The notes under the pieces: generated by a model | The model's database searches: none | What the model was told of the DNA's origin: nothing | What the model saw: the letters and a program-made list of their open reading frames with translations, nothing else | Position numbers and translations under genes: made by a program | From: Pristiophorus japonicus | Taxonomy: Eukaryota | Reading direction: 5' to 3' | Length of the DNA stretch: 64,000 nucleotides | Assembly: GCF_044704955.1 (NCBI RefSeq) | Contig: NC_091977.1 | Coordinates: 13,454,001-13,518,000 of the forward strand | Shown: piece after piece, positions 11,601 through 64,000 of the stretch | How positions within the stretch are numbered: the first letter of the stretch is position 1 | How the letters are laid out: each line of letters opens with the position of its first letter

Positions 11601-13915
11601 AAATCAAGCAGACACAGCATGGATTCATGAAGGGGAAATCATGTTCAACTAATTTACTGGAATTCTTTGAGGATATAACGAGCATGGTGGATAGAGGTGT
11701 ACCGATGGATGTGGTGTATTTAGATTTTCAAAAGGCATTCGATAAGGTGCCACACAAAAGGTTACTGCAGAAGATAAAGGTACGCGGAGTCAGAGGAAAT
11801 GTATTAGCATGGATAGAGAATTGGCTGGCGAACAGAAAGCAGAGAGTCGGGATAAATGGGTCCTTTTCGGGTTGGAAATCGGTGGTTAGTGGTGTGCCAC
11901 AGGGATCGGTGCTGGGACCACAACTGTTTCCAATATATATAGATGACCTGGAAGAGGGGACAGAGTGTAGTGCAACAAAATTTGCAGATGACACAAAGAT
12001 TAGTGGGAAAGCGGGTTGTGTAGAGGACACAGAAAGGCTGCAAAGAGATTTAGATAGGTTAAGCGAATGGGCTAAGGTTTGGCAGATGGAATACAATGTC
12101 AGAAAGTGTGAGGTCATCCACCTTGGGGAAAAAAAGCAGTAAAAGGGAATATTATTTGAATGGGGAGAAATTACAACATGCTGCGGTGCAGAGGGACCTG
12201 GGGGTCCTTGTGCATGAATCCCAAAAAGTTAGTTTGCAGGTGCAGCAGGTAATCAGGAAGGCGAATGGAATGTTGGCCTTCATTGCGAGAGGGATGGAGT
12301 ACAAAAGCAGGGAGGTCCTGCTGCAACTGTATAGGGTATTGGTGAGGCCGCACCTGGAGTACTGCGTGCAGTTTTGGTCACCTTATTTAAGGAAGGATAT
12401 ACTAGCTTTGGAGGGGGTACAGAGACGATTCACTAGGCTGATTCCGGAGATGAGGGGGTTACCTTATGATGATAGATTGAGTAGACTGGGTCTTTACTCG
12501 TTGGAGTTCAGAAGGATGAGGGGTGATCTTATCAAAACATTTAAAATAATGAAAGAGATAGACAAGATAGAGGTGGAGAGGTTGTTTCCACGGGTCGGGG
12601 AGACTAGAACTAGGGGGCACAGCCTCAAAATACGGGGGAGCCAATTTAAAACCAAGTTGAGAAGGAATTTCTTCTCCCAGAGGGTTGTGAATCTGTGGAA
12701 TTCCCTGCCCAAGGAAGCAGTTGAGGCTAGCTCATTGAATGTATTTAAGTCACAGATAGATAGATTTTTAACCAATAATGGAATTAAGGGTTACGGGGAG
12801 CGGGCGGGTAAGTGGAGCTGAGTCCACGGCCAGATCAGCCATGATCTTGTTAAATGGCGGAGCAGGCTCGAGGGGCTAGATGGCCTACTCCTGTTCCTAA
12901 TTCTTATGTTCTTATGTTCTTTTCATCATATGACAACCCCTTCATCTCCAGAATCAACTTCGTGAACATTCTCTGAAATGCCTCCAATGCAAGTAGATCC
13001 TTCCTTAAATAAGGAGACCAGAACTGTATGCAGTACTCCAGTTGTGGTCTCACCAATACCCTGTACAGTTGGAGCAGGACTTCCCTACTTTTATACTCCA
13101 TCTCCTTTGCAATAAAGAACAGCATTCCATTTACCTTCCTGATTACTTGCTGTTCCTGCATGCTAACTTTTTGCGTTTCATGCACAAGGACCCCAGATCC
13201 TTCTATATTACAGCACTTTTTGTAATCACTCCCCATTTAAATAATAATTTGCTTTTTTATTTTTCCTGCCAAAATGAATAACTTCACACTTTCCCACATT
13301 ATAGTCCATCTGCCAAATGTTTGCCCACTCACTTAGCCTGTCTATATCCCTTTGTAGATTCTTTGCTTTAGCCTCACAACTTGCTTTCCCACCTCTCATA
13401 TATCATCAGCAAATTTGGCTACATTCCACTCAGTCCCTTCATCCAAATCATTAATATAAATTGTAAATAGTTGAGGAGCTAGTACCGATCCCTGCGGTAC
13501 CCCACTAGTTATTGTTTGCCAACCTGAAAATGACCCATTTATCCCGACTCTCTATTTTCTGTTAGTTAGCTAATCCTCTATCCATGCTAATATATTACCC
13601 CCAATCCCGTGAGCTCCTATCTTGTGCAGTAACCTTTTGTGTGGCACCTTATCAAATGTTTCTGGAAATCCAACTATACGACATCATCTGGTTCTCCTCT
13701 ATCCACTCTGCTCGTTACATACTCAAAGAACTCCAGCGGATTTGTCAAGCATGATTCCCATTCATAAAACCATGCTGACTCTGCTTGACTGCATTATGAT
13801 TTTCTAAATGTCCTGCTACTACTTCCTTAATGATGGACTCCAGCATTTTTCCAATGACAGATGTTAAGCTAACTGGTCTACAGTTTCCTGCTTTCTGTCT
13901 TCCACCTTTCTTAAA
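8636..13915 (-). mobile_element. CR1 LINE (minus) in two pieces, 8636-9058 and 12919-13915
   Basis: CATAAGAA tail at 8638; CCTGCTCAACC (to 9058) continues as CTTTTCATCATATGACAACCCC at ~12919. Confidence 0.85.
9059..12918 (+). mobile_element. Near-full-length young CR1: ORF1 esterase (SGNH-like) part plus disrupted ORF2 EN-RT
   Basis: ORF1 VIGDSIVRG...VVHIGTND; ORF2 AITETW, GGGVAL, GDFN, SDH, DFQKAFD, FADDTK; GTTCTTAT tail; a few stops and frameshifts. Confidence 0.95.
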
Positions 13916-14982
13916 AAGCAGAGAGTCGGGATAAATGGGTCCTTTTCGGGTTGGAAATCGGTGGTTAGTGGTGTGCCACAGGGATCGATGCTGGGACCAC
14001 AACTGTTTACAATATACATAGATGACCTGGAAGAGGGGACAGAGTGTAGTGTAACAAAATTTGCAGATGGCACAAAGATTAGTGGGAAAGCGGGTTGTGT
14101 AGAGGACACAGAGAGGCTGCAAAGAGATTTAGATAGGTTAAGCGAATGGTCTAAGGTTTGGCAGATGGAATACAATGTCGGAAAGTGTGAGGTAATCCAC
14201 CTTGGGGAAAAAAAAACAAAAAAAGGGAATACTATTTGAATGGGGAGAAATTATAACATGCTGGGGGTCCTTGTGCATGAATCCCAAAAAGTTAGTTTGC
14301 AGGTGCAGCAGGTAATCAGGAAGGCGAATGGAATGTTGGCCTTCATTGCGAGAGGGATGGAGTACAAAAGCAGGTAGGTCCTTCTGCAACTGTACAGGGT
14401 ATTGGTGAGACCGCACCTGGAGTACTGCGTGCAGTTATGGTCGCCTTACTTAAGAAAGGATATACTGGCTTTGGAGGGGATACAGAGACGATTCACTCGG
14501 CTGATTCCGGAGATGAGGGGGTTATCTTATGATGATAGATTGAGTAGACTGGGTCTTTACTCATTGGAGTTCAGAAGGATGAGGGGTGATCTTATAGAAA
14601 CATTTAAAATCATGAAAGAGATAGACAAGATAGAGGCAGAGAGGTTGTTTCCACTGGTCGGGGAGACTAGAACTAGGGGGCACAGCCTCAAAATTCGGGG
14701 GAGCCAATTTAAAACCATGTTGAGAAGGAATTTCTTCTCCCAGAGGGTTATGAATCTATAAATTCTCTGCCCAAGGAAGCAGTTGAGGCTAGCTCATTGA
14801 CTGTATTCAAGTCATAGATAGATAGATTTTTAACCAATAAGGGAATTAAGGGTTACGGGGAGAGGGCGGGTAAGTGGAGCTGAGTCCACGGCCAGATCAG
14901 ACATGATCTTATTGAATGGCGGAGCAGGCTCGAGGGGCTAGATGGCCTACTCCTGTTCCTAATTCTTATGTTCTTATGTTCT
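13916..14982 (+). mobile_element. 5'-truncated CR1, same subfamily as 9059-12918
   Basis: Near-identical to ~11835-12918; GTTCTTAT tail. Confidence 0.93.
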
Positions 14983-15832: not shown

Positions 15833-17553
15833 TTAGATGAGGGGACTGAGTGTAATGTATCCAAGTTAGCTGATGATACAAAGCCAGGTGGGAAAGTAAG
15901 CTGTGAGGAGTGTGCCAAGAGGCTGCAAACAGATATAGACAGGCTAAGTGAGTGGGCAAGAACATGGCAGATGGAATTTAATGTGGAGAAATGTGGTTAT
16001 CCATTTTGGTAGGAAAAATAGAAAAGCAGAATATTTTATAAATGTTGAGAGATTAGGACATGTTGGTGTTCAGAGGAACCTGGGTGTCCTTGTACACGAA
16101 TCACTGAAAGTTAACATGCTGGTTAGCCAGCAATTAAGAAGGCTAATGGTATGTTAGGGGGTGAAATTCTCCTGCTGTGCGCCTCCGGGGTGTGCTAACG
16201 GGGCGCAAACGTGTTTTTGCCTGGTGGGGGCGGGGGTGTGGGGGGAGGGGGGCTGGTGAGGGGTGGGGGGATGGCGCACGCAGCATGCGAACCATCGGCT
16301 CCTTGGAAATTGCACTGGAGTTATCAGAGGCTCGACATCATCGCCATACACAGCAACCCATTTTTGCCCCACGGCAGAAATTGGGCAGTGCCCCGTGAGG
16401 CTGCCGTGGGCGATGTCTGTGCCAGCCTCGCGGGTCATGAACCAGGCTGCACTCCGCTCGCGGGGCAAAACTTAAAGGGGAGGTCCGCCGTCTCTTTTGC
16501 AGCACCCTCCGACTGACTGGTCCGGCCTCGAAGTCCATTTCCGCGGGGTTCGTGCCACGCTCGTGCAGCCCGCCACTCCCTTTCGGTGCCGGGCTGTGGC
16601 CCCGCCTCCCCGCCTCCCTGGTGGCCCAGTGGAGGTCCCTCAAAAGGCCTGCAGAGCTTGCAGCGTCTTTCCCCATTAACATAAGGGGAGTGCCCTTGTA
16701 ACGGGTCAGCGCTATGCGAAGAGGCCGCGTAGCACTCTGATGTTCGCCTGGGTAGCACCCCCCGAGCCTACCCCGAGAGGAAGTGGAGCGCCCAACATTG
16801 CACTCCACTTCCTGTCAGGGGCGGTAAGACCAATTTCGCTTCCAGTGCGGGACTTCTGCGCCGGGAGCAGAAGGTCCGGCCTCAGAGATTACTGTCCCTA
16901 AATGGGGCAATATGGAATTTCAGCCCATTAGTATTTATTACAAAAGAATTGGAGTATATGGGTAAAGAAGTCTTACTACAATTATATAGGGGTTTGGTGA
17001 GATCACACCTGGAGCACCGTGTGGTTTTGGTCTTACCTAAGAAAGGATATATTTGCTTTGGAGGGAGTGCAATGAAGGTTCACTAGACTGATTCCTGGGA
17101 TGTGGGGATTGTCCTGTGAGGAGCGATTGAGTAGACTAAGCCAATATTCCCTAAAGTTCAGAAAAATGAGAGGTGATCTCATTGAAACATACAAAATTCG
17201 TAATGGACTTGACGGGGTAGATGCAGGGAGGATGTTTCCCCTGGCTGGGGAATCTAGAACCAAGAGTCACTGTCTCAGAATCAGGAGTCGGCCATTTAGG
17301 ACTGAGATGAGGAGAAATGTCTTCACTCAGAGGGTGGTGAATCTTTGGAATTCTGTACCCCATAGAGTTTTGGAGGCTCATTCATTGAATATATTCAAGA
17401 CAGAGATTGATAGATTTTTGGATAGTAAGGGATATGCAGACAGTGCAGGAAAGTGGAGTTGAGGTAGAAGATCAGCCATGATCTTATTGAATGGCGGAGT
17501 AGGCTTGAGGGACCATATGGCCTACTCCAAGTCCTATTTCTTATGTTCTTATG
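15833..17553 (+). mobile_element. 5'-truncated CR1 interrupted by a MITE
   Basis: ADDTK...LSEWARTWQMEFN and 3' tail near 17540. Confidence 0.88.
16157..16927. mobile_element. Harbinger-type MITE, 771 bp, GC-rich
   Basis: TIRs GGGGGTGAAATTC and GAATTTCAGCCCA; TSD TTA at 16154-16156 and 16928-16930. Confidence 0.88.
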
Positions 17554-17739: not shown

Positions 17740-20700
17740 ATTCAGTTTGTTTAAAATGAAGGCCTGTAAACTGAAGCCGTGTGCACATTTAGTTTGTTTG
17801 AGATAAACCCCAGTGCTCATTTAGTTTCAGATGAATATCTGAGCTCAATTCAATTAGATGAAAGTCTGAAATCATTTAGTTTGCGGTGAAGATCTGTGCT
17901 CAGTAATTTGATTGAGATGAAGAATCTGTGCTCATTTAATTTGAGAAGAAGATCTGTGCTCATTTAGTTTGTTCGAGCTGAAGATCTGAGCTCAATTTGT
18001 TTAGATTTGAAGGTCTGTGCTCATTTAGTTTGAGATGAGGATTTGGCTCGTTTAGTTTGAAATGAAGATCTGTGCTCAATTAGTTTGACATGAAGATGTG
18101 TGCTTATTTAGTTAGATTTGAAGATGTGTGCTCATTTGTTTGGTTGAGATGAAAGTCTGTGCTCATTTAGTTGACTTGAAGATCTGTGCTCATTTAGTTT
18201 GAGATGAAGATCTGTGCTCACTTAAATTTGAGGTGAGCATTTGGCTCACTTAGTTTGAGATGAAGACCTGAGCTCATTTAGATTGAGATGAGGATTTGGC
18301 TCATTTAGTTTGTTGGAGATGAAGATTTGAGCTCATTTAGTTTGAATTGAAGATCTGTGCTCATTTAGTTTGTAATGAGGATCTGTTCACATTTAGTTTG
18401 TTTGAGATGAAGATCTGTGCTCATTTAGTTTGAGATGGAGATCTGTGCTCATTTAGTTTGAGATAAGGATTTGGCTCATTTAGTTTGAGATGAGGATCTG
18501 ATCTCAGTTAGCTTGAGGTGAAGATCTGTGGTCATTTAGTTTGAGATGAAGAGCAGATCACATTTAGTTTGAGATGAAGATCTGTGCTCATTTTGTTTGA
18601 GATGAACATCTGAGATCTTTAATTTTGAGATGAAGATCAGATCACATTTAGTTTCAGATTAAGATCTGTGCTCATTTAGTTTGTTTCAGATGATCTGAGT
18701 TAAGTTGGTTGAGATGAAGATCCGAGCTCATTTAATTTGAGATGAAAATCTGTGCTCAATTAGGTTGAGATGAAGATCTGTGCTCATTTAGTTTGTTGGG
18801 GATGATGTTCTATCCTCATTTAGTTTGAGATGAAGATCTGAGCTCATTTCGTTTGAGATGAACATAAGAACATAAGAATATAAGAAATTGGAACCGGCCC
18901 CTTGAGCCTGCTCCGCCATTCAATAAGATCATGGCTGATCTGATCATGGACTCAACTCCACTTTCCTGCCCGCTCCCCATAACCCCTTATCCTCTTATTG
19001 TTTAAGAAACTGTCTATTTCTGTCTTAAATTTATTCAATGTCCCAGCTTCCACAGCTCTCTGAGGCAGTGAATTCCAGATTTACAACCCTCTGCGAGAAG
19101 AAATTTCTCCTCATCTCAGTTTTAAATGGGCTGCCCCTTATTCTAACTTTGTGCCTTCTAGTTCTAGTCTGCCGCATCAGTGGAAACATCCTCACTGCAT
19201 CCACCTTGTCAAGCCCCCTCATAATCTTATACATTTCTATAAGATCATCTCTCATCCTTCTGAATTCCAATGAGTAGAGGCCCAACCTACTCAACCTTTC
19301 CTCATAAATCAACCCCCTCATCCCCGGAATCAACCTAGTGAACCTTCTCTGAACTGCCTCCAAAGCAAGTATTTTCTTTCATAAATATGGAAACCAAACT
19401 ACACGCAGTATTCCAGGTGTGGCCTCACGAATACCCTGTATAGCCGTAGTAAGACTTCCCTGCTTTTATACTCTATCCCCTTTGCAATAAAGGCCAAGAT
19501 ACCATTGGCCTTCCTGATCACTTGCTGTACCTGCATACTATGCTTTTGTGTTTCATGCACAAGTACCCCCAGGTTCCACTGTACTGCAGCACTTTGTAAT
19601 CTTCCTCCATTTAAATAATAACTTGCTGTTTGTTTTTTCTGCCAAAGTGCATGATCTCACACTTTCCAACATTATACTCCATCTGCCAAATTTTTGCCCA
19701 CTCACTTAGCCTGTCTATGTCCTTTTGCAAATTTTTTGTGTCGTCCTCACACATTGCTTTTCCTCCCATCTTTTTATCATCAGCAAACTTGGCTATGTTA
19801 CACTCAGTCCCTTCCTTCTTCCAAGTCATTAATATAGATTGTAAATAGTTGGGGTCCCAGCGCTGATCCCTTCGGCACCCCACTAGTTACTGGTTGCCAA
19901 CCAGAGAATGAACCATTTATCCCGACTCTCTGTTCTCTGTTAGTTAGCCAATCTTCTAGCCATGCTTATATATTACCCCCAACCCCGTGAACCTTTATCT
20001 TGTGCAGTAACCTTTTATGTGGCACCTTGTCAAATGCCTTCTGGAAATCCAAATACACCACATCCACTGGTTCCCCTTTATCCACCCTGTTCGTTACATC
20101 CTCAAAGAACTCCAGCAAATTTGTCAAACATGACTTCCCCTTCATAAATCCTTGCTGACTCTGCCTGACCGAATTTTATTTTCCAAATGTCCTGCTACTG
20201 TTTCTTTAATAATGGACTCCAACATTTTCCCAACCACAGATGTTAGGCTAACTGTCTATAGCTTCCTGCTTTTTGTCTGCCCCCTTTTTTAATTACATTT
20301 GCAGTTTTCCAATCTGCTGGGACCTCCCCAGAATCCAGGGAATTTTGATAAATTACAACCAATTCATACACTATCCCTGCCGCTTCTTCTCTTAAGAACC
20401 TAGGATGCAAGCCATAGGTCCAGGGGATTTATCTGCCTTTAGTCCCATTATCTTACTGAGTACCACCTCCTTAGTGATTGTGATTGTGTTAAGTTCCTCC
20501 CCCATAACCCCTAGACTATCCACAGATGAAGCTCTGTGCTCATTTAGTTTGAGATGAGGATCTGAGCTCATTTAGTTTGAGATGAGGATCTAAGCTCATT
20601 TAGTTTTGTTGAGATGAAGATCTGAGCTCATTTAGTTTTGTTGAGATGACGATCTGTAATCATTTAGTTTGAGATGAAGATCTGAGCTCATTTAATTTGT

Positions 20701-22275
20701 TGGAGATAAAGATCTGTGTTCATTAAGTCTGAGATGAAGATCTGTGCTCATTTTGATTGGTTGAGATGAAGATCGGTGCTCATTTAGTTCGGTTGAGATG
20801 AAGATCTCTCCTTATTTAGTTTGAGATGAAGATCAGGCTCATTTAGTTTGGTTGAAATGAAGATCTGAGGTCATTTAGTTTGTTGGAGATGAAGGTCTGA
20901 GCTCCTTTAGTTTGAGATGAAGATCTTTTCACATTTAGTTTTTTTGAGATGAAGATCTGTGCTCAATTAGTTTGAGATAATGATTTGACTCATTTTGTTT
21001 GAGATGAAGATCTGTGCTCGGTCAGTTGGAGGTGAAGATCTGAGCTTATTTAGTTTGTTTGAGATGAAGATCTGTGCTCGGTCAGTTGGAGGTGAAGATC
21101 TGAGCTTATTTAGTTTGTTTGAGATGAAGATCTGTGCTCGGTCAGTAGGAAGTGAAGATCTGTGCGCATTTAGTTTGAGATGAAGATCTTTTCTCATTTA
21201 GTTTGAGAGGAGGATTTGGCTCATTTAGTATGAGATGAAGATCTGTGCTCATTTAGTTTGAAATGAAGATCTGAGCTTATTTAGTTTGGATGAAGATCTG
21301 TGCTCATTTAGTTTGGTTGAAATGAAGATCTGAGGTCATTTAGTTTGAGATGAAGATCTGAGCTCATTTAGTTTGGTTGAAATGAAGATGTGAGCTTATT
21401 TAGTTTGGATGAAGATCTGTGCTCATTTAGTTTGGTTGAAATGAAGATCTGAGGTCATCTAGTTTGAGATGAAGATCTGTGCTCATTTAGTTTTGTTGAA
21501 ATGAAGGTCTGTGCCCATTTAGTTTGTTGGAGATAAAGATCTGAGCTCATTTCGATCGGTTGAGATGAAGATCGGTGCTCATTTTGTTTGAGTTGAAGAT
21601 CTGAGCTAATTTAGTTTGTTGGAGATGAAGATCTAAGATCATTTAGTTTGACAGGAGGATCAGTGCTCAACTAGTTTGTTTGAGATGAAGATCTGTGTTC
21701 ATTTAGTTTGAGATGAGGATCTGTGTTCATTTAGTTTGAGATGAGGATCTGTGTTCATTTAGTTTGAGATGAGGATCTGTGCTCATTTAGTTTGAGATGA
21801 GGATCTGTGTTCATTTAGTTTGAGATGAGGATCTGTGTTCATTTAGTTTGAGATGAAGATCTGAGCTCAATTAGTTTGAAATGAAGATCTAAGCTCATTT
21901 AGTTTGTTGGCGATGAAGATCTGTGTTCAGTTAGTTTGGTTGAGATGAAGATCTTTGCTCATTTAGGTTGAGATTAAAATGTGAGCTCATTTAGTTTGAG
22001 ATGAAGATCTGTGCTCATTTAGTTTGTTGGAGATGAAGATCTGTGCTCATTTAGTTTGAAATGAGGATCTGTGCTGAACTAGTTTGGTTGAGATGAAGAT
22101 CTGAGCTCACTTAGTTTGAGATGGAGATCTGTGCTCATTTTGTTGGAGATGAAGATCTGAGCTTAGTCAGTTTGAGATGAAGATCTGAGCTCATTTATTT
22201 TGTTGGAGATGAAGATCTGAGCTCATTTATTTTGTTGGAGATGAAGATCTGAGCTCATTTAGTTGATTTGAAATA
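17740..22275. repeat. Degenerate satellite, 28/32-bp unit GAGATGAAGATCTGTGCTCATTTAGTTT(GTTT), split by a CR1
   Basis: Tandem copies at ~17740-18860 and ~20524-22275; three ~60-bp higher-order copies at ~21001-21180. Confidence 0.95.
18861..20523 (-). mobile_element. 5'-truncated CR1 inserted in the satellite
   Basis: CATAAGAA tail; RT motifs on the minus strand; AGATGAA present at both junctions. Confidence 0.92.
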
Positions 22276-22820
22276 TGGCAAAGTAGCATGGAATATGTCT
22301 GGTCATGATATCAAATAAAACTAATACTCTGCTGAATCAGGTTAAAATCACTATTTCCAATATCTTAGCTCCTCGTGTACACGACGTGACCTTGAATAGT
22401 ATGGGACCGGATTTGCGGGGGGGAGGCGCGGGGTGTTGAGGAGAGCCAGATGTGCCAGATAAATATTTTACCCCAGTTTTTTCGAGCATATGCATTGATT
22501 TCTGTGTACTACCGACCACCCCTTATAAAAGTCATTGTGGGTCATGTGTTCTATATGATGAATTTTGAGTCACAAGTATGTGGAGGTAATGCTTGAAGAT
22601 TTTTCTGTAATTTTTTTGTGGATATTAGTGAAATGTTGTCGGGGTAGATTTCGACTTTATGCGACAGTGTAAACAAGCCCGTTTTACATCTTTCACGCTT
22701 TGTATTCCCGTTGAAGTCGAGGGACTCGCCGTCACCTCTTTTACACAATCGCACAAAGTCAAGAGAAACCCAATTGTCGTTCCCCAAAAATGCTGAGACA
22801 CCCCGTTCTTCTTGTCGTAG

Positions 22821-23188
22821 GCTCCTGCTTCTGGGTGGCGGTTCTGGACGGGAATGTCGTGGGCATCGTGGCTGCCAGAGGGAACGAGGAGGACAACACG
22901 GTGGAGCTTCGCCGCATGTCCGTGGACTTTGAGCAGCGGGGGAAAGGCATCGCCAAGGCCCTGGGCCGCAAGGTTCTGGAGTTCGCCGTCCTCAACAACT
23001 ACTCCGCCGTCGTGCTGGGCACCACCGCCGTCAAACTGGCCGCCCACAAGCTCTACGAGTCCTTGGGTTTCAGATACATCGGCGTCACCGAACACTACGT
23101 GCTGCCGGGGATGAATCACTCGGTCTTGGAGAAAATGTTTTTCCAGCTACGTTACCACCGCTACCGGCTGCATCTCCGTGAAGAATGA
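22821..23188 (+). CDS. NAT8L: N-acetylaspartate synthetase (GNAT family), last coding exon
   Basis: GSCFWVAVLDGNVVGIVAAR...RGKGIAKALGRKVLEFA...YESLGF...RYHRYRLHLREE* closely matches the vertebrate NAT8L C-terminus; acceptor TTCTTCTTGTCGTAG ends at 22820 (phase 1); TGA at 23186-23188. Confidence 0.96.
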
Positions 23189-31303: not shown

Positions 31304-33580
31304 GGTCATGGTCCTGTCGACTGAAGCCTAGGGTCATGGTCCTGTAGTTTGTAGCCCAGGGTCATGGTCCTGTAGACTGAAGCCCAGGGTCATGGTCCTG
31401 TAGACTGAAGCCTAGGGTCATGGTCCTGTAGACTGAAGCCTAGGGTCATGGTCCTGTAGACTGAAGCCTAGGGTCATGGTCCTGTAGACTGAAGCCTAGG
31501 GTCATGGTCCTGTAGTTTGTAGCCCAGGGTCATGGTCCTGTAGACTGAAGCCTAGGGTCATGGTCCTGTAGTTTGTAGCCCAGGGTCATGGTCCTGTAGA
31601 CTGAAGCCTAGGGTCATGGTCCTGTAGACTGAAGCCTAGGGTCATGGTCCTGTAGTTTGTAGCCCAGGGTCATGGTCCTGTAGACTGAAGCCTAGGGTCA
31701 TGGTCCTGTAGACTGAAGCCTAGGGTCATGGTCCTGTAGTTTGTAGCCCAGGGTCATGGTCCTGTAGACTGAAGCCCAGGGTCATGGTCCTGTAGTTGTA
31801 GCCCAGGGTCATGGTCCTGTAGGATGTAGCCCAGGGTCATGGTCCTGCAGACTGTAGCCTAGGGTCATGGTAATGTCGACTGAAGCCCAGGGTCATGGTC
31901 CTGTAGACTGAAGCCCAGGGTCATGGTAATGTCGACTGAAGCTCAGGGTCATGGTCCTGTAGGTTGTAGCCCAGGGTCATGGTCCTGTAGGTTGTAGCCC
32001 AGGGTCATGGTCCTGTAGGTTGTAGCCCAGGGTCATGGTCCTGTAGGTTGTAGCCCAGGGTCATGGTCCTGTAGACTGAAGCCCAGGGTCATGATCCTGT
32101 AGACTGAAGCCCAGGGTCATGATCCTGTAGGTTGTAGCCCAGGATCATGGTCCTGTAGACTGAAGCCCAGGGTCATGGTCCTGTAGACTGAAGCCCCAGG
32201 TCATGGTCCTGTAGACTGAAGCCCAGGGTCATGGTCCTGTATTATGAAGCCCAGTGTCACGGTCCTGTAGACTGAAGCCCAGGGTCATGGTCCTGTAGGT
32301 TGTAGCCCAGGGTCATGGTCCTGTAGACTGAAGCCCAGGGTCATGATCCTGTAGACTGAAGCCCAGGGTCATGGTCCTGTAGGTTGTAGCCCAGGGTCAT
32401 GGTCCTGTAGACTGAAGCCCAGGGTCATGATCCTGTAGACTGAAGCCCAGGGTCATGGTCCTGTAGGTTGTAGCCCAGGATCATGGTCCTGTAGACTGAA
32501 GCCCAGGGTCATGATCCTGTAGACTGAAGCCCAGGGTCATGATCCTGTAGACTGAAGCCCAGGGTCATGGTCCTGTAGGTTGTAGCCCAGGATCATGGTC
32601 CTGTAGACTGAAGCCCAGGGTCATGGTCCTGTAGACTGAAGCCCAGGGTCATGGTCCTGTATTCTGAAGCCCAGTATCACGGTCCTGTAGACTGAAGCCC
32701 AGGGTCATGGTCCTGTAGACTGAAGCCCAGGGTCATGGTCCTGTAGACTGAAGCCCAGGGTCACGGTCCTGTAGACTGAAGCCCAGGGTCACGGTCCTGT
32801 AGACTGAAGCCCAGGGTCACGGTCCTGTAGACTGAAGCCCAGGGTCACGGTCCTGTAGACTGAAGCCCAGGGTCACGGTCCTGTAGACTGAAGCCCAGGG
32901 TCACGGTCCTGTAGACTGAAGCCCAGGGTCACGGTCCTGTAGACTGAAGCCCAGTGTCACGGTCCTGTAGACTGAAGCCCAGGGTCATGGTCCTGTAGAC
33001 TGAAGCCCAGGGTCATGGTCCTGTAGACTGAAGCCCAGGGTCACTGTCCTGTAGGTTGTAGCCCAGGGTCATGGTCCTGTAGACTGAAGCCCAGGGTCAT
33101 GGTCCTGTAGACTGAAGCCCAGGGTCATGGTCCTGTAGACTGAAGCCCAGGGTCATGGTCCTGTAGACTGAAGCCCAGGGTCATGGTCCTGTAGACTGAA
33201 GCCCAGGGTCATGGTCCTGTAGACTGAAGCCCAGGGTTATGGTCCTGTAGTCTGAAGCCCAGAGTTATGGTCCTGTAGACTGAAGCCCAGGGTCACGGTC
33301 CTGTAGACTGAAGCCCAGGGTCACGGTCCTGTAGACTGAAGCCCTGGGTCACGGTCCTGTGGGTGTAATTCAGGGTCATGGTCCTGTAGGTTGTAGCCCA
33401 AGGTCATGATCCTGTAGGTTGTAGCCCAGGGTCATGGTCCTGTAGGTTGTAGCCCAGGGTCATGGTCCTGTGGACTGAAGCCCAGGGTCATGGTCCTGTG
33501 GTTGTAGCCTAGGGTCACTGTCCTGTGGGTTGTAGCCCAATGTTCTGGTCTGGGCTGAAGAGCAATGTCATGGTCCTGTA
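31304..33580. repeat. 28-bp minisatellite, ~80 copies (GGGTCATGGTCCTGTAGACTGAAGCCCA)
   Basis: Regular 28-bp period with clustered variant units. Confidence 0.98.
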
Positions 33581-45794: not shown

Positions 45795-46005
45795 TTTCAT
45801 AGGCAGTCCCTCGGGGTCGAGGATTACTTGCTACTACACTAAAACTGAGTACTCAGGTCACTGATGAACTCATTTTAAACTGTGGAAGGTGCCTGTGCGT
45901 GAATTCTTTTAACGTGAGGGGACCGTTGCACATCATTACCACACAAAATGACGGAGCAAGGTCTTGGTCCAGAGGCAAGGGGATCCAAGACGACTGGAGA
46001 CCTCT
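45795..46005 (-). mobile_element. RTE-tailed non-autonomous repeat, copy 2
   Basis: CATAGGCAGTCCCTCGGGGTCGAGGA...GGTCTTGGTCCAG...GACGACTGGAGACC. Confidence 0.65.
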
Positions 46006-47120
46006 GCTCCTCGCCCGCTCCGACCTCCGCTCCTCGCCCGCTCCGACCTCCGCTCCTCACCGCTTCCAACCTCCGCTCCTCGCCCGCCCCGACCTCCGTT
46101 CCTCGCCCGCCCCGACCTCCGCTCCTCGCCCGCCCCGACCTCCGTTCCTCGCCCACCCCGACCTCCGCTCCTCGCCCGCCCCGACCTCCGCTCCTCGCCC
46201 GCCCCGACCTCCGCTCCTCGCCCGCCCCGACCTCCGCTCCTCGCCCACCCCGACCTCCGTTCCTCGCCCGCCCCGACCTCCGCTCCTCGCCCGCCCCGAC
46301 CTCCGCTCCTCGCCCGCCCCGACCTCCGCTCCTCGCCCACCCCGACCTCCGCTCCTCGCCCACCCCGACCTCCGCTCCTCGCCCACCCCGACCTCCGCTC
46401 CTCGCCCACCCCGACCTCCGCTCCGACCTCCGCTCCTCGCCCACCCCGACCTCCGCTCCTCGCCCGCCCCGACCTCCGCTCCTCGCCCACCCCGACCTCC
46501 GCTCCTCGCCCGCCCCGACCTCCGCTCCTCGCTCGCCCCGACCTCCGCTCCGACCTCCGCTCCTCGCCCACCCGACCTCTGCTCCGACCTCCGCTCCGAC
46601 CTCCACTCCTCGCTCGCCCCGACCTCCGCTCCTCGCCCGCCCCGACCTCCGCTCCGACCTCCGCTCCTCGCCCGCCCCGACCTCCGCTCCTCGCCCGCCC
46701 CGACCTCCGCTCCTCGCCCGCCCCGACCTCCGCTCCGACCTCCGCTCCTCGCCCGCCCCGACCTCCGCTCCTCGCCCGCCCCGACCTCCGCTCCTCGCCC
46801 ACCCCGACCTCCGCTCCTCGCCCGCCCCGACCTCCGCTCCTCGCCCGCCCCGACCTCCGCTCCTCGCCCGCCCCGACCTCCGCTCCTCGCCCACCCCGAC
46901 CTCCGCTCCTCGCCCGCCCCGACCTCCGCTCCTCGCCCACCCCGACCTCCGCTCCTCGCCCGCCCCGACCTCCGCTCCTCGCCCACCCCGACCTCCGTTC
47001 CTCGCCCGCTCTGACCTCCGCTCCTCGCTGCCTCAAACCTCCACTCCTCGCCCGCTCCGACCTCCACTCCTTGCCGCTTCCGACCTCCGCTCCTCGCCGC
47101 TTCTGACCTCCACTCCTTTA
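46002..47120. repeat. GC-rich 23-bp minisatellite (CGACCTCCGCTCCTCGCCCGCCC)
   Basis: 23-bp period; explains the six long Pro/Arg/Gly-rich ORFs. Confidence 0.97.
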
Positions 47121-51004: not shown

Positions 51005-52722
51005 TTTAACATGCAGCAATTAGGAAAGCAAATGGAATGTTAACCTTTATTACAAAAGGATTGGAGTAGAAGAGTAAAGAAGTCTTACTGCAATTATATA
51101 ATGACTGGGTGGAACCACATCTGAACTACTGTGTACAGTTTTGGCCTCCTCATATAAGGAAGGATATACTTGCCATTGAGGGAGTGCAATAAAGGTTCAC
51201 CAGACTGATTCCTGGGATGGGGAGATTGTCCTTTGAGGAGAGATTGAGTAGACTAGGCCTATATTCTCTAGAGTTTCAAAGAATGAGAGGTGATCTCATT
51301 GAAACTTAGAAAAAAATCGGTGGTTAGTGGTGTGCCACAGGGATCGGTGCTGGGACCACAACTGTTTACACTATACATAGATGACCTGGAAGAGGGGACA
51401 GAGTGTAGTGTAACAAAATTTGCAGATGACACAAAGATTAGTGGGAAAGCAGGTTGTGTAGAGGACAGAGAGGCTTCAAAGAGATTTAGATAGGTTAAGC
51501 GAATGGGCTAAGGTTTGGCAGATAGAATACAATGTCAGAAAGTGTGAGATCATCCACCTTGGGAAAAAAAAACAGTAAAAGGGAATATTATTTGAATGGG
51601 GAGAAATTACAACATGCTGCGGTGCAGAGGGACCTGGGGGTCCTTGTGCATGAATCCCAAAGAGTTAGTTTGGAGGTGCAGCAGGTAATCAGGAAGGCGA
51701 ATGGAATGTTGGCCTTCATTGCGAGAGGGATGGAGTACAAAAGCAGGGAGGTCCTGCTGCAACTGTATAGGGTATTGGTGAGGCCGCACCTGGAGTACTG
51801 CGTGCAGTTTTGGTCACCTTACTTAAGGAAGGATATACTAGCTTTGGAGGAGGTACAGAGACGATTCACTAGGCTGATTCCGGAGATGAGGGGGTTACCT
51901 TATGATGATAGATTGAGTAGACTGGGTCTTTACTCGTTGGAGTTCAGAAGGATGAGGGGTGATCTTATAGAAACATTTAAAATCATGAAAGGGATAGACA
52001 AGATAGAGGCAGAGAGGTTGTTTCCACTGGTCAGGGAGACTAGAACTAGGGGGCACAGCCTCAAAATACGGGGGAGCCAATTTAAAACCGAGTTGAGAAG
52101 GAATTTCTTCTCCCAGAGGATTGTGAATCTGTGGAATTCTCTGCCCAAGGAAGCAGTTGAGGCTAGCTCATTGAATGTATTCAAGTCACAGATAGATAGA
52201 TTTTTAACCAATAAGGGAATTAAGGGTTATGGGGAGCGGGCGGGTAAGTGGAGCTGAGTCCACGGCCAGATCAGCCATGATCTTGTTGAATGGCGGAGCA
52301 GGCTCGAGAGGCTAGATGGCCTACTCCTGTTTCTAATTCTTATGTTCTTATGTTAAAATTCTTACAGGGCTTGACAGGGTAGGTGCAGAGAAGATGTTTC
52401 CCCTAGCTGGGGAGTCTAGACCAGGGGTCGCAGTCTCAGAATAAGGGGTGGGCCATTTAAGACTGAAATGAGGAGACATTTCTTCACTCAGAGGGTGGTG
52501 AATGATTTGAATTCTCTACCCCAGAGGGCTGTGGAAGCTCAGTCATTGAGTACATTCCAGACAGGGATCAATATATTTTTGGGTATTAAGGGAATTAAGG
52601 GATATGGGGACAGTGCGGGAAGGTGAAGGTGAGATTGAAGATCAGGCATGATCTTCTTGAATGGCAGAGCAGGCTTGAGGGGCCATATGTCCTATTCTTG
52701 CTCCTGTTTCTTATGTTCTTAT
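51005..52722 (+). mobile_element. Older CR1 3' fragment with a nested young CR1 (~51313-52354)
   Basis: Host GATCTCATTGAAAC continues as AAAATTCTTACAGGG after 52354; the nested copy is near-identical to ~11876-12918. Confidence 0.9.
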
Positions 52723-56960: not shown

Positions 56961-58092
56961 TCTGCAGCGCACTCCTGAGAACGCCTTATGCCAATCAATC
57001 TGAATATCCCAAATAAGGATTATAGTCACCAGTGCAACACTTCCATTTCCTACAGCTCATCCATAAGGGCTCTCGGAATGAGGTTGCTAGTTTAGCATTA
57101 AACGCTGTTAATTCGATAGCTGTGCTGTGGGCCCATTCGGAACAGGGTCGAGGCTGGCCAAACTCATTTCACGTAGAATCATTGCAGCTGGCAGAGAGAG
57201 GGAGCGGGAACTATCATGCCATCTGTCTCGGGCAGGATCTGAGACCAGAGTTAACCCATCAGTACTAACCCAGTGTGACACTCAGTTCCTGGGAAATCAA
57301 TGAAATCACTTCTTCTATTTGGACCAAGTGCATCCTCTTCTGACCGAATTGCCGCGTGTGGTTCCCTCTGTCTGATCGGCATACAATGGAAGCATTTTTT
57401 TAAATGTTATTTTTATTTCGACCTTTGCTTTAGATCGATACATTTATTCCAGTTAAACCGCCGAAAACGTTCCATTGTAGCAAGATTTATTTTTTAAACA
57501 TCTTTTCCGCTGCATTCAGCTGTAATTTTGACTCGCTTGATTTTCACCAAAGCAACAGTCAATGCTTCAGTCAACACGGTTCCGATTTTTTTTAGATGAA
57601 TCATCCAAGGTCAGAATATTCAGCGATACATAAAGGGGTGGTGGACTGGAGGGTGTTACAAAGGCAATAGTGACAGATGGAATCGAGCAATGGGCAACTT
57701 GGCAACTTGAACACACTGCCAGCTGGTTGGGAGGCAGGCGCTTGACTACCCTGGGCATTCATCCCTGGCGAGAGTAAGGCTGGGGCGAGGCAGGGACGTG
57801 AAAGGTAAATTCAGTGTGAGATATGGAGTGGAGAACAGAATTCATCGCAAGCTGAGCCAAGGCTGCAGACCATCCTGTCTAATTGGACTCAATCAGTTGT
57901 CCAATGCACATGGCTCCTGCCTCCCTAATTATCGCCCCTCATCTTAATGAGCAAAGCAAGAATTCTATCTTGTGAAAAACTGCTACTTACTAATAGGCTC
58001 CCGAGTGAATTTCAAGGGCTTGAGACCTAACCTTTTATCCACAATGCCTTTCAAATAACTTCAAATCCATTTTTTAATTCATTTATGTTGCG

Positions 58093-60072
58093 AAAGTAAA
58101 CTTGCGCAAAACATAAAAACAGATAGTAAAAGCTTTTATAGATATAAAAAACGGAAAAGAGTGACTAAAGTAAATGTTGGTCCCTTCGAAGACGAGAAGG
58201 GGGATTTAATAATGGGAAATGTGGAAATGGCTGAGACCTTAAACAATTATTTTGCTTCGGTCTTCACAGAGGAAGACACAAAAACCATGCCAAAAATTGC
58301 TGGTCACAGGAATGTGGGAAGGGAGGACCTTGGGACAATCACTATCACTAGGGGGTGTAGTGCTGGACAGGCTAATGGGACTCAAGGTAGACAAGTCCCC
58401 TGGTCCTGATGAAATGCATCCCAGGGTATTAAAAGAGATGGCGGAAGTTATAGCAGATGCATTCGTTATAATCTACCAAAATTCTCTGGACTCTGGGGAG
58501 ATACCAGCGGATTGGAAAGCAGCTAATGTAACGCCTCTGTTTTAAAAAGGGGGCAGACAAAAGGCAGGTAACTATAGGCCGGTTAGTTTAATATCTGTAG
58601 TGGGGAAAATGTTTGAAGCTATCATTAAGGAAGGAATAGCGGGACATCTTGATATGAATAGTGCAATCAAGCAGACACAACATGGATTCATGAAGGGGAA
58701 ATAATGTTTAACTAATTTACTGGAATTCTTTGAGGATATAACAAGCATGGTGGATAGAGGTGTACCGATGGATGTGGTGTATTTAGATGTCCAAAAGGCA
58801 TTCGATAAGGTGTCACACAAAAGGTTACTGCAGAAGATAAAGGTACGCGGAGTCAGAGGAAATGTATTAGCATGGATCGAGAATTGGCTGGCTAATTCTC
58901 AGAAAGCAGAGAGTCGGGATAAATGGGTCCTTTTCGGGTTGGAAGTCGGGGGTTAGTGATGTGCCACAGAGATCGGTGCTGGGACCACAACTGTTTACAA
59001 TATACATAGATGACCTGGAAGAGGGGACAGAGTGTAGTGTAACAAAATTTGCAGATGACACGAAGATTAGTGGGAAAGCGGGTTGTGTAGAGGACACAGA
59101 GAGGCTGCAAAGAGATTTAGATAGGTTAAGCAAATGGGCTAAGGTTTGGCAGATGGAATACAATGTCGGAAAATGTGAGGTCATCCACCTTGGGAAAAAA
59201 AACAGTAAAAGGGAATATTATTTGACTGGGGAGAAATTACAACATGCTGCGGTGCAGAGGGACCTGGGGGTCCTTGTGTATGAAACTCTTTTTGGAAAAG
59301 CTTTAGCATGTCACATTTAACGTGATAAAATCTCGATAGATGCAGGTGGAGGTCGAACCCATGTGTTTTGGTTTACGAGACCGACGCTTTACCACTTGGC
59401 CACTAGTTTGCAGGTGCAGCAGGTAATCAGGAGGCAAATGGAATGTTGGCCTTCATTGCGAGAGGGATGGAGTACAAAAGCAGGGAGGTCTTGTTGCAAA
59501 TGTATAGGGTATTGGTGAGGCTGCACCTGGAGTACTGTGTGCAGTTTTGGTCACCTTACTTAAGGAAGGATATACTAGCTTTGGAGGGGGTACAGAGACG
59601 ATTCACTAGGCTGATTCCGGAGATGAGGGGGTTACCTTATGATGATAGATTGAGTAGACTGGGTCTTTACTCGTTGGAGTAAAGAAGGATGAGGGGTGAT
59701 CTTATAGAAACATTTAAAATAATGAAAGAGATAGACAAGATAGAGGCAGAGAGGTTGTTTCCACTGGTCGGGGAGACTAGAACTAGGGGGCACAGCCTCA
59801 AAATACGGGGGAGCCAATTTAAAACCGAGTTGAGAAGGTATTTCTTCTCCCAGAGGGTTGTGAATCTGTGGAATTCTCTGCCCAAGGAAACAGTTGAGGC
59901 TAGCTCATTGAATGTATTCAAGTCACAGATAGTTAGATTTTTAACCAATAAGGGAATTAAGGGTTATGGGGAGCGGGCGGGTAAGTGGAGCTGAGTCCAC
60001 GGCCAGATCAGCCATGATCTTGTTGAATGGTGGAGCAGGCTCGAGGGGCTAGATGGCCTACTCCTGTTCCTA
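58093..60072 (+). mobile_element. Young CR1 ORF2 copy carrying the tRNA-Thr-headed insertion
   Basis: Near-identical to ~11045-12900. Confidence 0.93.
59285..59403 (-). mobile_element. tRNA-Thr(CGT)-derived SINE-like insertion, 119 bp
   Basis: Minus strand GTGGCCAAGTGGTAAAGCGTCGGTCTCGTAAACC...GGGTTCGACC matches vertebrate tRNA-Thr-CGT; tail ends TTCCAAAAAGAGT; it replaces about 11 bp of CR1. Confidence 0.85.
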
Positions 60073-60205
60073 AAAAAAAAGAATGTTGATGGTGTTGGAT
60101 GAGGTACCAATCAAGCGGGCTGCTTTGTCCTGGATGGTGTAGAGCTTCTTGTGTGTTGAAGCTGCACTCATCCAGGCAAGGGGAGAGTATTCCATCACAC
60201 TCCTG

Positions 60206-61748
60206 AGCTAATGTAACGCCTTTGCTTAAAAAAGGGGTCAGACAAAAGGCAAGTAACTATAGGCCGATTAGTTTAACATCTGTAGTGGGGAAAATGATTG
60301 AAACTATCATTAAGGAAGAAATAGCGGGACATCTAGATAAGAATAGTGCAATCAAACAGACGCAGCATGTATTCATGAAGGGGAAATCATGTTTAACTAA
60401 TTTACTGGAATGCTTTGAGGATATAACGAGCATGGTGGATAGAAGTGTACCGATGGATGTGGTGTATTTAGATTTTCAAAAGGCATTCGATAAGGTGCCA
60501 CACAAAAGGTTACTGCAGAAGATAAAGGTACGCGGAGTCAGTGGAAATGTATTAGCATGGATATAGAATTGGCTGGCTAACAGAAAGCAGAGAGTCGGGA
60601 TAAATGGGTCCTTTTCGGGTTGGAAATCGGTGGTTAGTGGTGTGCCACAGGGATCGGTGCTGGGACCACAACTGTTTACAATATACATAGATGACCTGGA
60701 AGAAGGGACAGAAGGTCGTGTAACAAAATTTGCAGATGACACAAAGATTAGTGGGAAAGCGGGTTGTGTAGAGGACACAGAGAGGCTGCAAAGAGATTTA
60801 GATAGGTTAAGCGAATGGGCTAAGGTTTGGCAGATGGAATACAATGTTGGAAAGTGTGAGGTCATCCACCTTGGGAAAAAAACAGTAAAAGGGAATATTA
60901 TTTGAATGGGGAGAAATTACAACATGCTGAGGTGCAGAGGGACCTGGGGGTCCTTGTGCATGAAACTCTTTTGGAGTTTACCTGAAAAAAACATAAACAT
61001 TAAACCGTGCCACCCGCCCCAGATGACACACCAGACATTTACAAGGCCCTTTTTTTCTTTTTTGTGTTTTTTTTTTGTGTTTTTCTTTTTTTGGGTTTTT
61101 TTTTTTGGGGCGCTAAAATCACATATTTTCCAGTGCCCCCTATAAAAGGGGATGGGGACACTAAAAGCACCGGCAATTAAAACAAATTAAACTTTAAAAC
61201 GTAAAATCAAATTAAAATTTGGTTGCCGGGCGTGATGATGCACTCCAGTCCCTCCGGTGCCCACCTCTCGCGGAAGGCCGCGAGCGTACCGGTGGACACC
61301 GCGTGCTCCATCTCCAAGGACACCCTGGACCGGATGTAAGAGCGGAAGAGAGGCAGGCAGTCAGGTTGAACGACCCCCTCGACCGCCCGCTGCCTGGACC
61401 GGCTGATGGCACCCTTGGCCGTGCCCAGGAGCAGTTCTACGAGGAGGCCCTCGGACCTACCCGCTCCCCTCCGCACAGGGTGCCCAAAGATCAGGAGAGT
61501 GGGACTGAAGTGCAGCCAGAATTTCAGGAGCAGCCCCTTCAAATAATGGAACAGGGGCTGCAATCCTTGTGCATGAATCCCAAAAAGTTAGTTTGCAGGT
61601 GCAACAGGTAATCAGGAAGGCGAATGGAATGTTGGCCTTCATTGCGAGAGGGATGGAGTACAAAAGCAGGGAGGTCCTGCTGCAACTGTACAGGGTATTA
61701 GTGAGGCTGCACTCCTGTTCCTAATTCTTATGTTCTTATGTTCTTATA
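60206..61748 (+). mobile_element. Young CR1 copy carrying the Tx1-like insertion and an internal 3' deletion
   Basis: Same subfamily; jumps from GTGAGGCTGC to ACTCCTGTTCC-tail near 61710. Confidence 0.9.
60965..61563 (-). mobile_element. 5'-truncated Tx1-like non-LTR retrotransposon (ORF2 C-terminus + 3' UTR), 599 bp
   Basis: Open frame 61563-61207 LQPLFHYLKGLLLKFWLHFSPTLLIFG...LLLGTAK...FRERW resembles the Tx1 ORF2p C-terminus; 14-bp TSD TCCTTGTGCATGAA at 60951-60964 and 61564-61577. Confidence 0.85.
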
Positions 61749-62175: not shown

Positions 62176-64000
62176 ATAAGAACATAAGAACATAAGAATT
62201 AGGAACAGGAGTAGGCCATCTAGCCCCTCGAGCCTGCTCCGCCATTCAACAAGATCATGGCTGATCTGGCCGTGGACTCAGCTCCACTTACCCGCTCGCT
62301 CCCCATAACCCTTAATTCCCTTATTGGTTAAAAATCTATCTATCTGTGACTTGAATACATTCAATGAGCTAGCCTCAACTGCTTCCTTGGGCAGAGAATT
62401 CCACAGATTCACAACCCTCTGGGAGAAGAAATTCCTTCTCAACTCGGTTTTAAATTGGCTCCTCTGTATTTTGAGGCTGTGCCCCCTAGTTCTAGTCTCC
62501 CGACCAGTGGAAACAACCTCTCTGCCTCTATCTTGTCTATCCCTTTCATTATTTTAAATGTTTCTGCAAGATCACCCCTCATCCTTCTGAACTCCAATGA
62601 GTAAAGACCCAGTCTACTCAATCTATCATCATAAGGTAACCCCCTCATCTCCGGAATCAGCCTAGTGAATCGTCTCTGTACCCCCTCCAAAGCTAGTATA
62701 TCCTTCCTTAAGTAAGGTGATCAAAACTGCATGCAGTACTTCAGGTGCGGCCTCACTAATACCCTGTACAGTTGCAGCAGGACCTCCCTGCTTTTGTACT
62801 CCATCCCTCTCGCAATGAAGGCCAACATTCCATTCACCTTCCTGATTACCTGCTGCACCTGCAAACTAACTTTTTGGGATTCATGCACAAGGACCCCCAG
62901 GTCCCTCTGCACCGCAACATGTTGTAATTTCTCCCCATTCAAATAATACTCCCTTTTACTGTTTTTTTTTCCAAGGTGGATGACCTCACATTTTCCGACA
63001 TTGTATTCCATCTGCCAGACCTTAGCCCATTTGCTTAACCTATCTAAATCTCTTTGCAGCCTCTCTGTGTCCTCTATACAACCGGCTTACCCATTAATCT
63101 TTGTGTCATCCGCAAATTTTGTTACACTACACTCTGTCCCCTCTTCCAGGTCATCTTGTATATATTGTGAACAGTTGTGGTCCCAGCACCGATCCCTGTG
63201 GCACACCACTAACCACCGATTTCCAACCCGAAAAGGACCCATTTATCCCGACTCTCTGCTTTCTGTTAGCCAGCCAATTCTCGATCCATGCTAATACATT
63301 TCCTCTGACACCACGTACCTTTATCTTCTGCATAAACCTTTTGTGTGGCACCTTATCGAATGCCTTTTGAAAATCTAAATACACCACATCCACCGGTACA
63401 CCTCTATCCACCATGCTCATTATATCCTCAAAGAATTCCAGTAAATTAGTTATACATGATTTCCCCTTCATGAATCCATGTTGCGTCTGCTTGATTGCAC
63501 TATTCCGATCTAGATGTCCCGCTATTTCTTCCTTAATGATAGCTTCAAGCATTTTCCCCACTACAGATGTTAAACTAACCGGCCTATATTTACCTGTCTT
63601 TTGTCTGCCCCCTTTTTTAAACAGAGGCGTTACATTAGCTGCTTTCCAATCCGCTGGTACCTCCCCAGAGTCCAGAGAATTTTGGTAGATTATAACGAAT
63701 GCATCTGCTATAACTTCCGCCATTTCTTTTAATACCCTGGGATGCATTTCATCAGGACCAGGGGACTTGTCTACCTTGAGTCCCATTAGCCTGTCCAGCA
63801 CTACCCCCCTAGTGATAGTGATTATCTCAAGGTCCTCCCTTCCCACATTCCCATGACCAGCAATTTTTGGCTTGGTTTTTGTGTCTTCCACTGTGAAGAC
63901 CGAAGCAAAATAATTGGTTAAGGTCTCAGCCATTTCCACATTTCCCATTATTAAATCCCCCTTCTCATCTTCTAAGGGACCAACATTTACTTTAGTCACT
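62176..64000 (-). mobile_element. Young CR1 copy running off the window end
   Basis: 282-aa RT-containing ORF 63151-63999; CATAAGAA tail at 62176. Confidence 0.95.

Follow-up and report, generated by a model that had tools for sequence, protein, structure and literature searches.

A Tx1-clade LINE with a single preferred target in the coding sequence of a CR1-type LINE in Pristiophorus japonicus, its head-to-tail arrays and its chimeras with small RNAs

The stretch of Pristiophorus japonicus DNA considered here (contig NC_091977.1, positions 13,454,001 to 13,518,000, 64,000 nt, hereafter the window) carries two separate copies of one long interspersed nuclear element (LINE), 94% identical across 764 nt, that are broken at the same nucleotide of their second open reading frame (ORF2). 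In one, TCCTTGTGTATGAA ends at 59284 and is followed by ACTCTTTT(T)GGA; in the other, TCCTTGTGCATGAA ends at 60964 and is again followed by ACTCTTTT(T)GGA, the sequence just left of both breaks being TCCTTGTGYATGAA. Insert 1 (59285-59403) is 119 nt long, has no target-site duplication and is accompanied by the loss of 11 nt of target; insert 2 (60965-61563) is 599 nt long and lies between exact 14-bp duplications (60951-60964 and 61564-61577). The broken host, whose reverse transcriptase (RT) and endonuclease (EN) domains were confirmed on a sister copy within the window, and whose ORF1 gave only a weak match to GDSL esterase (E 0.005), is provisionally called CR1 here. A preliminary description of the window had pointed to these two breaks and to four unbroken sites (near 12205, 14268, 51641 and, on the minus strand, 62880), and had proposed a sequence-specific Tx1 LINE together with a partner short interspersed nuclear element (SINE). 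Both junctions are as it described and all four empty sites are present, that at 51641 (+) reading TCCCAAAG. With up to two mismatches allowed, the target 14-mer occurs 10 times in the window, where shuffles lead to an expectation of 1.3. The coordinates of all parts are in Table 1.

What sort of element is insert 2? To judge by its sequence it is a 5′-truncated LINE of the Tx1 clade, natural full-length copies of which are about 7.2 kb long, with a 920-nt 5′ untranslated region (UTR), an ORF1 of 698 amino acids, an ORF2 of 1,299 amino acids and a 240-nt 3′ UTR that terminates in a fixed tip without poly(A). Both frames are open in 12 of 30 full-length copies, and variable 5′ truncation, a fixed 3′ end and target-site duplication are all present among the copies. 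ORF2 contains EN (PF03372) and RT (PF00078) domains and a zf-RVT match (PF13966) that is below the curated cut-off; identity with Xenopus Tx1 ORF2 is 49% across 1,296 amino acids, and the EN aligns end to end with that of L1. In an RT tree of 34 rows (the query and 33 picked from 120 hits, one having been dropped for a short match), with CR1 on a long branch as outgroup and no L1 row, the element is in a 100/100 clade of nine rows with proteins of Xenopus Tx1, turtle, sturgeon and stingray, the last being nearest, in keeping with a cartilaginous-fish host. That the turtle proteins might be Tx1-CR1 fusions was considered and ruled out, as they have no CR1 match. Target choice is steered by a loop of the endonuclease. 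Here the loop is VRPGVGW and in Tx1L it is VRVRDGHVSQ, three residues longer; the Tx1L loop is the one grafted into L1 EN in structure 2v0r. In ORF1 a CCHC motif is visible, yet there is no Pfam match, and Atlas look-alikes of zf-CCHC or ZCCHC3 type, at 0.88-0.94, are a lead only. Searches of the element's 5′ end for a self-cleaving ribozyme or other Rfam RNA gave nothing near the gathering score. A hairpin suspected in the 3′ tip (ACTC-loop-GAGT) was rejected, since folding of the copy in the window (z -1.15) does not predict it; its apparent conservation was circular because the search patterns had demanded the stem.

Is the coincidence of the two breaks peculiar to this window? Over the 5.9 Gb of genome searched, the exact junction occurs 15,820 times and its reversed control 0 times, site counts here and below including segmental duplicates. 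Among the first 100 element tips, 89 are at the CR1 ORF2 site and antisense to it, 83 being exact and six being mutated target sites or internal array junctions. For target-specific elements a published criterion (PMC4494074) is that one sequence type should make up more than 20% of flanks; the share is 89 of 100 here or, counted from the element side alone and with the exact 8-mer TGYATGAA, 12,381 of 16,386 tips. When copies were chosen by likeness to the insert alone, the GTGCATGAA flank was present in 27 of 29 and the other two end in ATGAA, so that unrelated flanks, which the preliminary description had named as grounds for abandoning its proposal, are not the majority. Of the sites in exact CR1 context, 6,541 hold an insert and 24,401 do not (about 21% filled, duplicates included), and the inserts at the target base range from 5 nt to 7.2 kb and have many tip variants. 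A sequence-specific Tx1 LINE thus almost certainly targets one site in CR1 ORF2, in antisense orientation, at thousands of loci, and that part of the early proposal stands, on these counts and on the RT tree alike. The accompanying idea that CR1 offers a safe harbour is a speculative, adaptive one. Of the 11 off-target tips nine still end in GAA, and six have 12-15-bp duplications. One off-target site (L122, contig C1, about 33.656 Mb), with only TGAA of the target, has two stacked copies, so that a resident seems to attract a second insertion even where CR1 context is lacking. A further off-target insertion (L115), judged by eye, occupies the corresponding part of another CR1-like subfamily. 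In contigs of other organisms, which speak to presence only and not to absence, two of the organisms had just the empty site and one had a few bases past the junction.

Copies are stacked head to tail with the 14-mer between units, and it is at the 5′ ends of the units that the arrays (designated by letters, with their units numbered) are informative. For adjacent units that are both 5′-truncated and each at least 200 nt long, the same 5′ base begins both members in 16 of 19 pairs. The 15 arrays have 15 different breakpoints, and 13 of the 16 breakpoint-sharing pairs differ within the first 20 nt of the tip. The first batch of arrays was chosen by spacing, blind to 5′ ends; left out of the count were V7/V8 (a copy of V4/V5), L195 (a micro-unit between units), and L120 and L122 (ends unmapped). 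One true coincidence of breakpoint between loci was encountered, at 6872; two others, at 5504 and 6534, were edges of the analysed stretches and vanished on extension. Within pairs, private alleles are common to both units as far as 4747 in A1/A2, with lineage differences from 5358; the corresponding positions are 5711 and 6505 in A8/A9, and 2331 and 2449 in A6/A7, the differences in all three being 3′ of the common alleles, with two exceptions in A1/A2. In arrays D and E almost nothing is common except the breakpoint, and for D1/D2 and E1/E2 respectively 59 and 50 of 72 outside copies are closer than the mate, which is supportive. At L195 there are four different 3′ subfamilies; all four terminate in an identical junction, and an identical 15-nt micro-unit follows each. 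Local duplication variants are repeated through arrays F, G (G1-G3) and V, and five units consist of a shared or full-length 5′ part and a 3′ part joined with an internal gap between them.

How could neighbours have a private 5′ end in common and yet differ at the 3′ end, where synthesis begins? A shared private breakpoint with differing tips suggests that a new complementary DNA (cDNA) finishes by copying the resident element beside it, a reading that we hold to be probable, though well short of certain, and such completion seems to be what usually happens where the resident measures at least a few hundred bases. L195 and a block repeat in array V are consistent with arrays that grow on their 5′ side by run-off copying, in the manner of R1. 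It is possible, though we think it the less credible course, that arrays are instead copied whole from read-through transcripts of several units, with reverse transcription crossing the duplication into the upstream unit. Transcripts of Drosophila R1 arrays have been reported (PMC2718515), the neighbour of a full-length 5′ end is another copy in 3,978 cases and CR1 in only 425, and G4/G5 have a common tip and an internal duplication that is not the local variant, which argues for a multi-unit template from elsewhere. However, read-through leaves unexplained both the locus-private breakpoints joined to different 3′ ends and the local duplication variants repeated in F, G1-G3 and V; it probably operates alongside neighbour copying. 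Less favoured again, and to our minds unlikely, is that targeting is real but that arrays grew by tandem duplication at the DNA level, through unequal exchange at the 14-bp repeats, with their 3′ ends later diversified by gene conversion or replacement. The near-identical neighbours A2-A4, the block repeat in V and the same-tip units in L226 are what it would give. Against it, in the small arrays with one breakpoint common to both truncated units (K, M, O, F, L192, L223 and A8/A9) the tips always differ, the differences in A1/A2 and A8/A9 are 3′-anchored, and L195 would require four separate 3′ replacements.

Insert 1 has the build of a SINE, a tRNA-Thr-type head on an 11-nt Tx1 tip, but is a single copy. 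Apart from the 11 nt that come first on the plus strand, its 108 nt are up to 96% identical to tRNA-Thr(CGT)-type genes, with the trailer included through to a TTTT run. Of 252 candidate relatives 40 were scored, and 29 matches besides the window's own were fetched; of 30 loci, ARAGORN called a tRNA in 24, with Thr-CGT in 14 cases. The 29 are tRNA-Thr-type genes within a common unit not less than 3 kb long, and the Tx1 tip or CR1 flank was present in 0 of 29; among the 39 other matches listed, none passes query position 110 of 119. These loci (L079-L107) are mostly on high-numbered contigs, their repeated units being 90-99% alike, and in many of them the anticodon has drifted to CAT, these being called Met. 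Could the 119-mer still represent a true tRNA-derived SINE family mobilised by Tx1, as the preliminary description had it? The RNA polymerase III (Pol III) type head, the Tx1 tip and the shared target site would be expected of one, and Tx1-mobilised SINEs exist in crocodilians (PMC4494074). With no dispersed copies of the head-and-tail unit at independent sites among the relatives scored, and with no match to the 119-mer in any other of the 30 chimeras sampled, which hold many other RNAs, the family is largely refuted and we give it very little credence: the SINE half of the early proposal falls, and the 119-mer is almost certainly a one-off chimera of a pre-tRNA with the Tx1 tip.

It has company. 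A search for target, tip and AAAA yielded 158 sites genome-wide, and in 30 that were sampled the tip is adjoined by a tRNA in 17 and by 5S RNA in four (identified by Rfam, ARAGORN or homology), the rest being four tRNA-like pieces judged by eye, four micro-inserts and one fold-back of the flank. The isotypes include Thr, Glu, Ser, Asp, Met, Tyr (with intron), Arg and Leu, and three chimeras have a second RNA, 5S twice and vault once. All the identified RNAs are in the element's sense, and most keep the 3′ trailer, from which it follows that precursors were copied. Among unselected CR1 junctions 13 of 40 have only 5-18 nt of the element, so stalling near nt 11 is common. At L133 and in unit 2 of array S the 11-12-nt tip is followed by an inverted copy of the left flank, and these local fold-backs suggest that synthesis can switch onto nearby DNA. 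The chimeras likely arise by an end-to-end template jump, though ligation of RNAs before copying could also make them.

Put together, the following scheme seems to us likely to hold as a whole, in its three parts of targeting, stalling with RNA jumping, and completion on the neighbour. The Tx1 endonuclease would nick CR1 ORF2 at one base and there prime reverse transcription of the element's RNA from its fixed, tail-less end; the duplication speaks for a second nick, some 14 nt away. Synthesis would often stall after some 5-18 nt, and the stalled product would either be closed as a micro-insert or jump to a Pol III RNA (pre-tRNA, 5S or vault) at its U-ended 3′ terminus, the 119-mer of the window being the putative outcome of one such jump. 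With the target restored by the duplication, copies accumulate in stacks; a new cDNA would then probably invade its resident neighbour and copy that neighbour's 5′ part and junction, in which case units would share a private 5′ end while bringing their own 3′ end. In this scheme the site, the orientation, the duplication, the ORFs, what the chimeras contain and the shared breakpoints are observed; the nicking, the jump between RNA templates, the copying from DNA and the side on which arrays grow are deduced.

A number of points count against this scheme, or blunt it. The 11 off-target tips in the first 100 make specificity strong, not absolute. Twelve of the first 15 junctions on contig C1 represent three segmentally duplicated loci, so junction counts are not counts of independent events; we give almost no credence to passive spread of one or a few old insertions amplified in a CR1 master or by segmental duplication, refuted as a general cause by lengths from 5 nt to 7.2 kb, by the numerous tip variants and the assortment of RNAs found at that one base, and by the 24,401 exact-context sites that are empty. 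The segmental groups in question (L001-L015, 0.18-3.2 Mb) are 93-99.9% identical over 3 kb. The arrays were sampled, as first-listed hits, from contig C1 only; three of the 19 pairs lack a shared breakpoint, three of the 16 that have one share the tip too, A2-A4 differ by just 0-3 mismatches, as plain unequal exchange would give, and one internal duplication in array G is not the local variant. A test of the direction of growth by load of private mutations gave 12 vs 6 (p=0.24). The nearest-relative test covered five of 13 pairs, was weaker for D2/D3 (11 of 72) and E2/E3 (4 of 72), and found A8/A9 identical in the region used. Finally, the tip and AAAA pattern selects U-ended partners, other partners being uncounted. 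The possibility that both window junctions trace to one ancestral insertion later rearranged, which the preliminary description had set against itself, did not unseat targeting.

Empty sites also occur in the window in other CR1-like subfamilies, whose 14-mer is the same or nearly so and is flanked on the right by different sequence: 13177-13190 (-), 16087-16100 (+) and 19552-19565 (-). The Tx1 3′ tip (60965-60976), on its own strand, resembles CR1 to the right of the cut (61578-61589) over 8-9 nt, which may be chance. Elsewhere, a 157-amino-acid open frame with a GNAT acetyltransferase domain (22715-23188, +; Pfam E 4e-15) is probably a host gene exon or retrocopy, and there are long minisatellites with periods of 28 bp (17813-18862, 20524-22264 and 31304-33526), 23 bp (45999-47117) and 35 bp (1-894).

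Table 1. Parts of the two broken CR1 copies and empty target sites, in window coordinates
Feature	Position	Strand	Remark
CR1-type LINE copy 1, ORF2 region left of break	58059..59284	+	left edge approximate
Target 14-mer, break directly after	59271..59284	+	ORF2 codons ...VLVHE, C-terminal to RT domain
Tx1 3′ tip, 11 nt	59285..59295	-	tRNA-gene match ends at query position 108/119
Copy of pre-tRNA-Thr(CGT)-type transcript, body and 3′ trailer to TTTT run	59296..59403	-	96% to genomic tRNA genes
tRNA body inside insert 1	~59337-59403	-	first 7 nt missing
CR1 copy 1 resumes after loss of 11 nt of target, without duplication	59404..60070	+	right edge approximate
CR1-type LINE copy 2, left of break	60207..60964	+	left edge approximate
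14-bp target-site duplication, left copy	60951..60964	+	
Tx1 3′ UTR; fixed tip, without poly(A) tail	60965..61206	-	
Tx1 ORF2 C-terminal part, 5′-truncated at ~6,600 of 7.2-kb element	61207..61563	-	93% to natural full-length copy
14-bp target-site duplication, right copy; CR1 copy 2 then resumes	61564..61577	+	
Empty target site, another CR1 copy	12205..12218	+	
Empty target site	14268..14281	+	
Empty target site	51641..51654	+	
Empty target site	62880..62893	-	

Tx1-clade elements are often target-specific. In cultured cells L1 cDNA recombines with resident L1 by strand annealing, giving a duplication and a chimeric element; the likeness is completion of a cDNA on a genomic copy, and the difference is that it is rare there and apparently usual here. 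Targeting of DNA and long terminal repeat (LTR) transposons by Tx1 elements is already published, the named targets of the clade being piggyBac, Mariner, Harbinger, LTR elements, U2 and microsatellites, with SINEU-3 in tandem (PMC4494074). Closest is Xenopus Tx1L, which is alike in ORF2 along its length, is in the same RT clade and also targets a transposon (the Tx1D piggyBac; same source), but the target here is the coding region of a CR1 LINE and the EN loop is changed. Crocodilian Tx1-Mar, Tx1-8_Crp, Tx1-4_AMi and Tx1-9_AMi likewise prefer transposons (Mariner, LTR elements, Harbinger), and with SINEU have in common tandem insertion around a duplication and the mobilisation of small-RNA-headed elements; in the available part of that account no non-LTR target is named for them, and the small-RNA inserts here are independent chimeras of many RNAs, unlike the SINEU family (PMC4494074). 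Drosophila R1, of another clade and aimed at 28S rDNA, is also a site-specific LINE with an apurinic-type (APE) endonuclease and forms head-to-tail arrays separated by a 14-bp duplication, but neighbours that share private 5′ breakpoints and have different 3′ ends are not described in the available text of PMC2718515. U6-L1 and tRNA-L1 chimeras resemble those here in that a single insertion joins a small RNA, on the 5′ side, to the 3′ end of a LINE, the human tRNA-L1 cases (21 loci) being mostly tRNA halves and mostly antisense (10.1101/2025.02.02.635956), whereas here mostly whole pre-tRNAs with trailers are joined, in sense, to a 9-11-nt tip at one target. In the full-text literature no report of a CR1-targeting Tx1 was found, Repbase, Dfam and subscription journals being outside that search, so the family may already be deposited; the available portions of PMC11702581, PMC13343379 and 10.64898/2026.06.26.734816 have nothing on a CR1 target. 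Nor, in the full-text literature outside subscription journals, was a report found of shared private 5′ breakpoints in arrays.

The finding adds the coding sequence of a LINE to the known targets of Tx1 elements, and with about one fifth of the exact-context sites in this CR1 subfamily broken, one LINE may limit another. With Xenopus Tx1L it supplies a close pair, 49% identical and with a changed EN loop, in which a change of target by an APE endonuclease can be tested. How non-LTR elements attach their 5′ ends is an open question; here the result is preserved in thousands of stacked copies, and completion on a neighbour can be counted from the private breakpoints that units share. The chimeras correspond to the proposed first step in the origin of SINEs, a Pol III head on a LINE tip, repeated some 150 times with different RNAs. 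For RNA-templated insertion there is further interest in a site-specific RT that would change template after 11 nt. On balance we lean, if only slightly, to the view of a vertebrate LINE that homes to one base in the polymerase gene of another LINE, uses its own stacks as repair templates and delivers many Pol III transcripts after an 11-nt start. If so, 5′ ends would be inherited locally, short cDNAs would become full-length elements, and the genome of this species would hold a live record of SINE birth.

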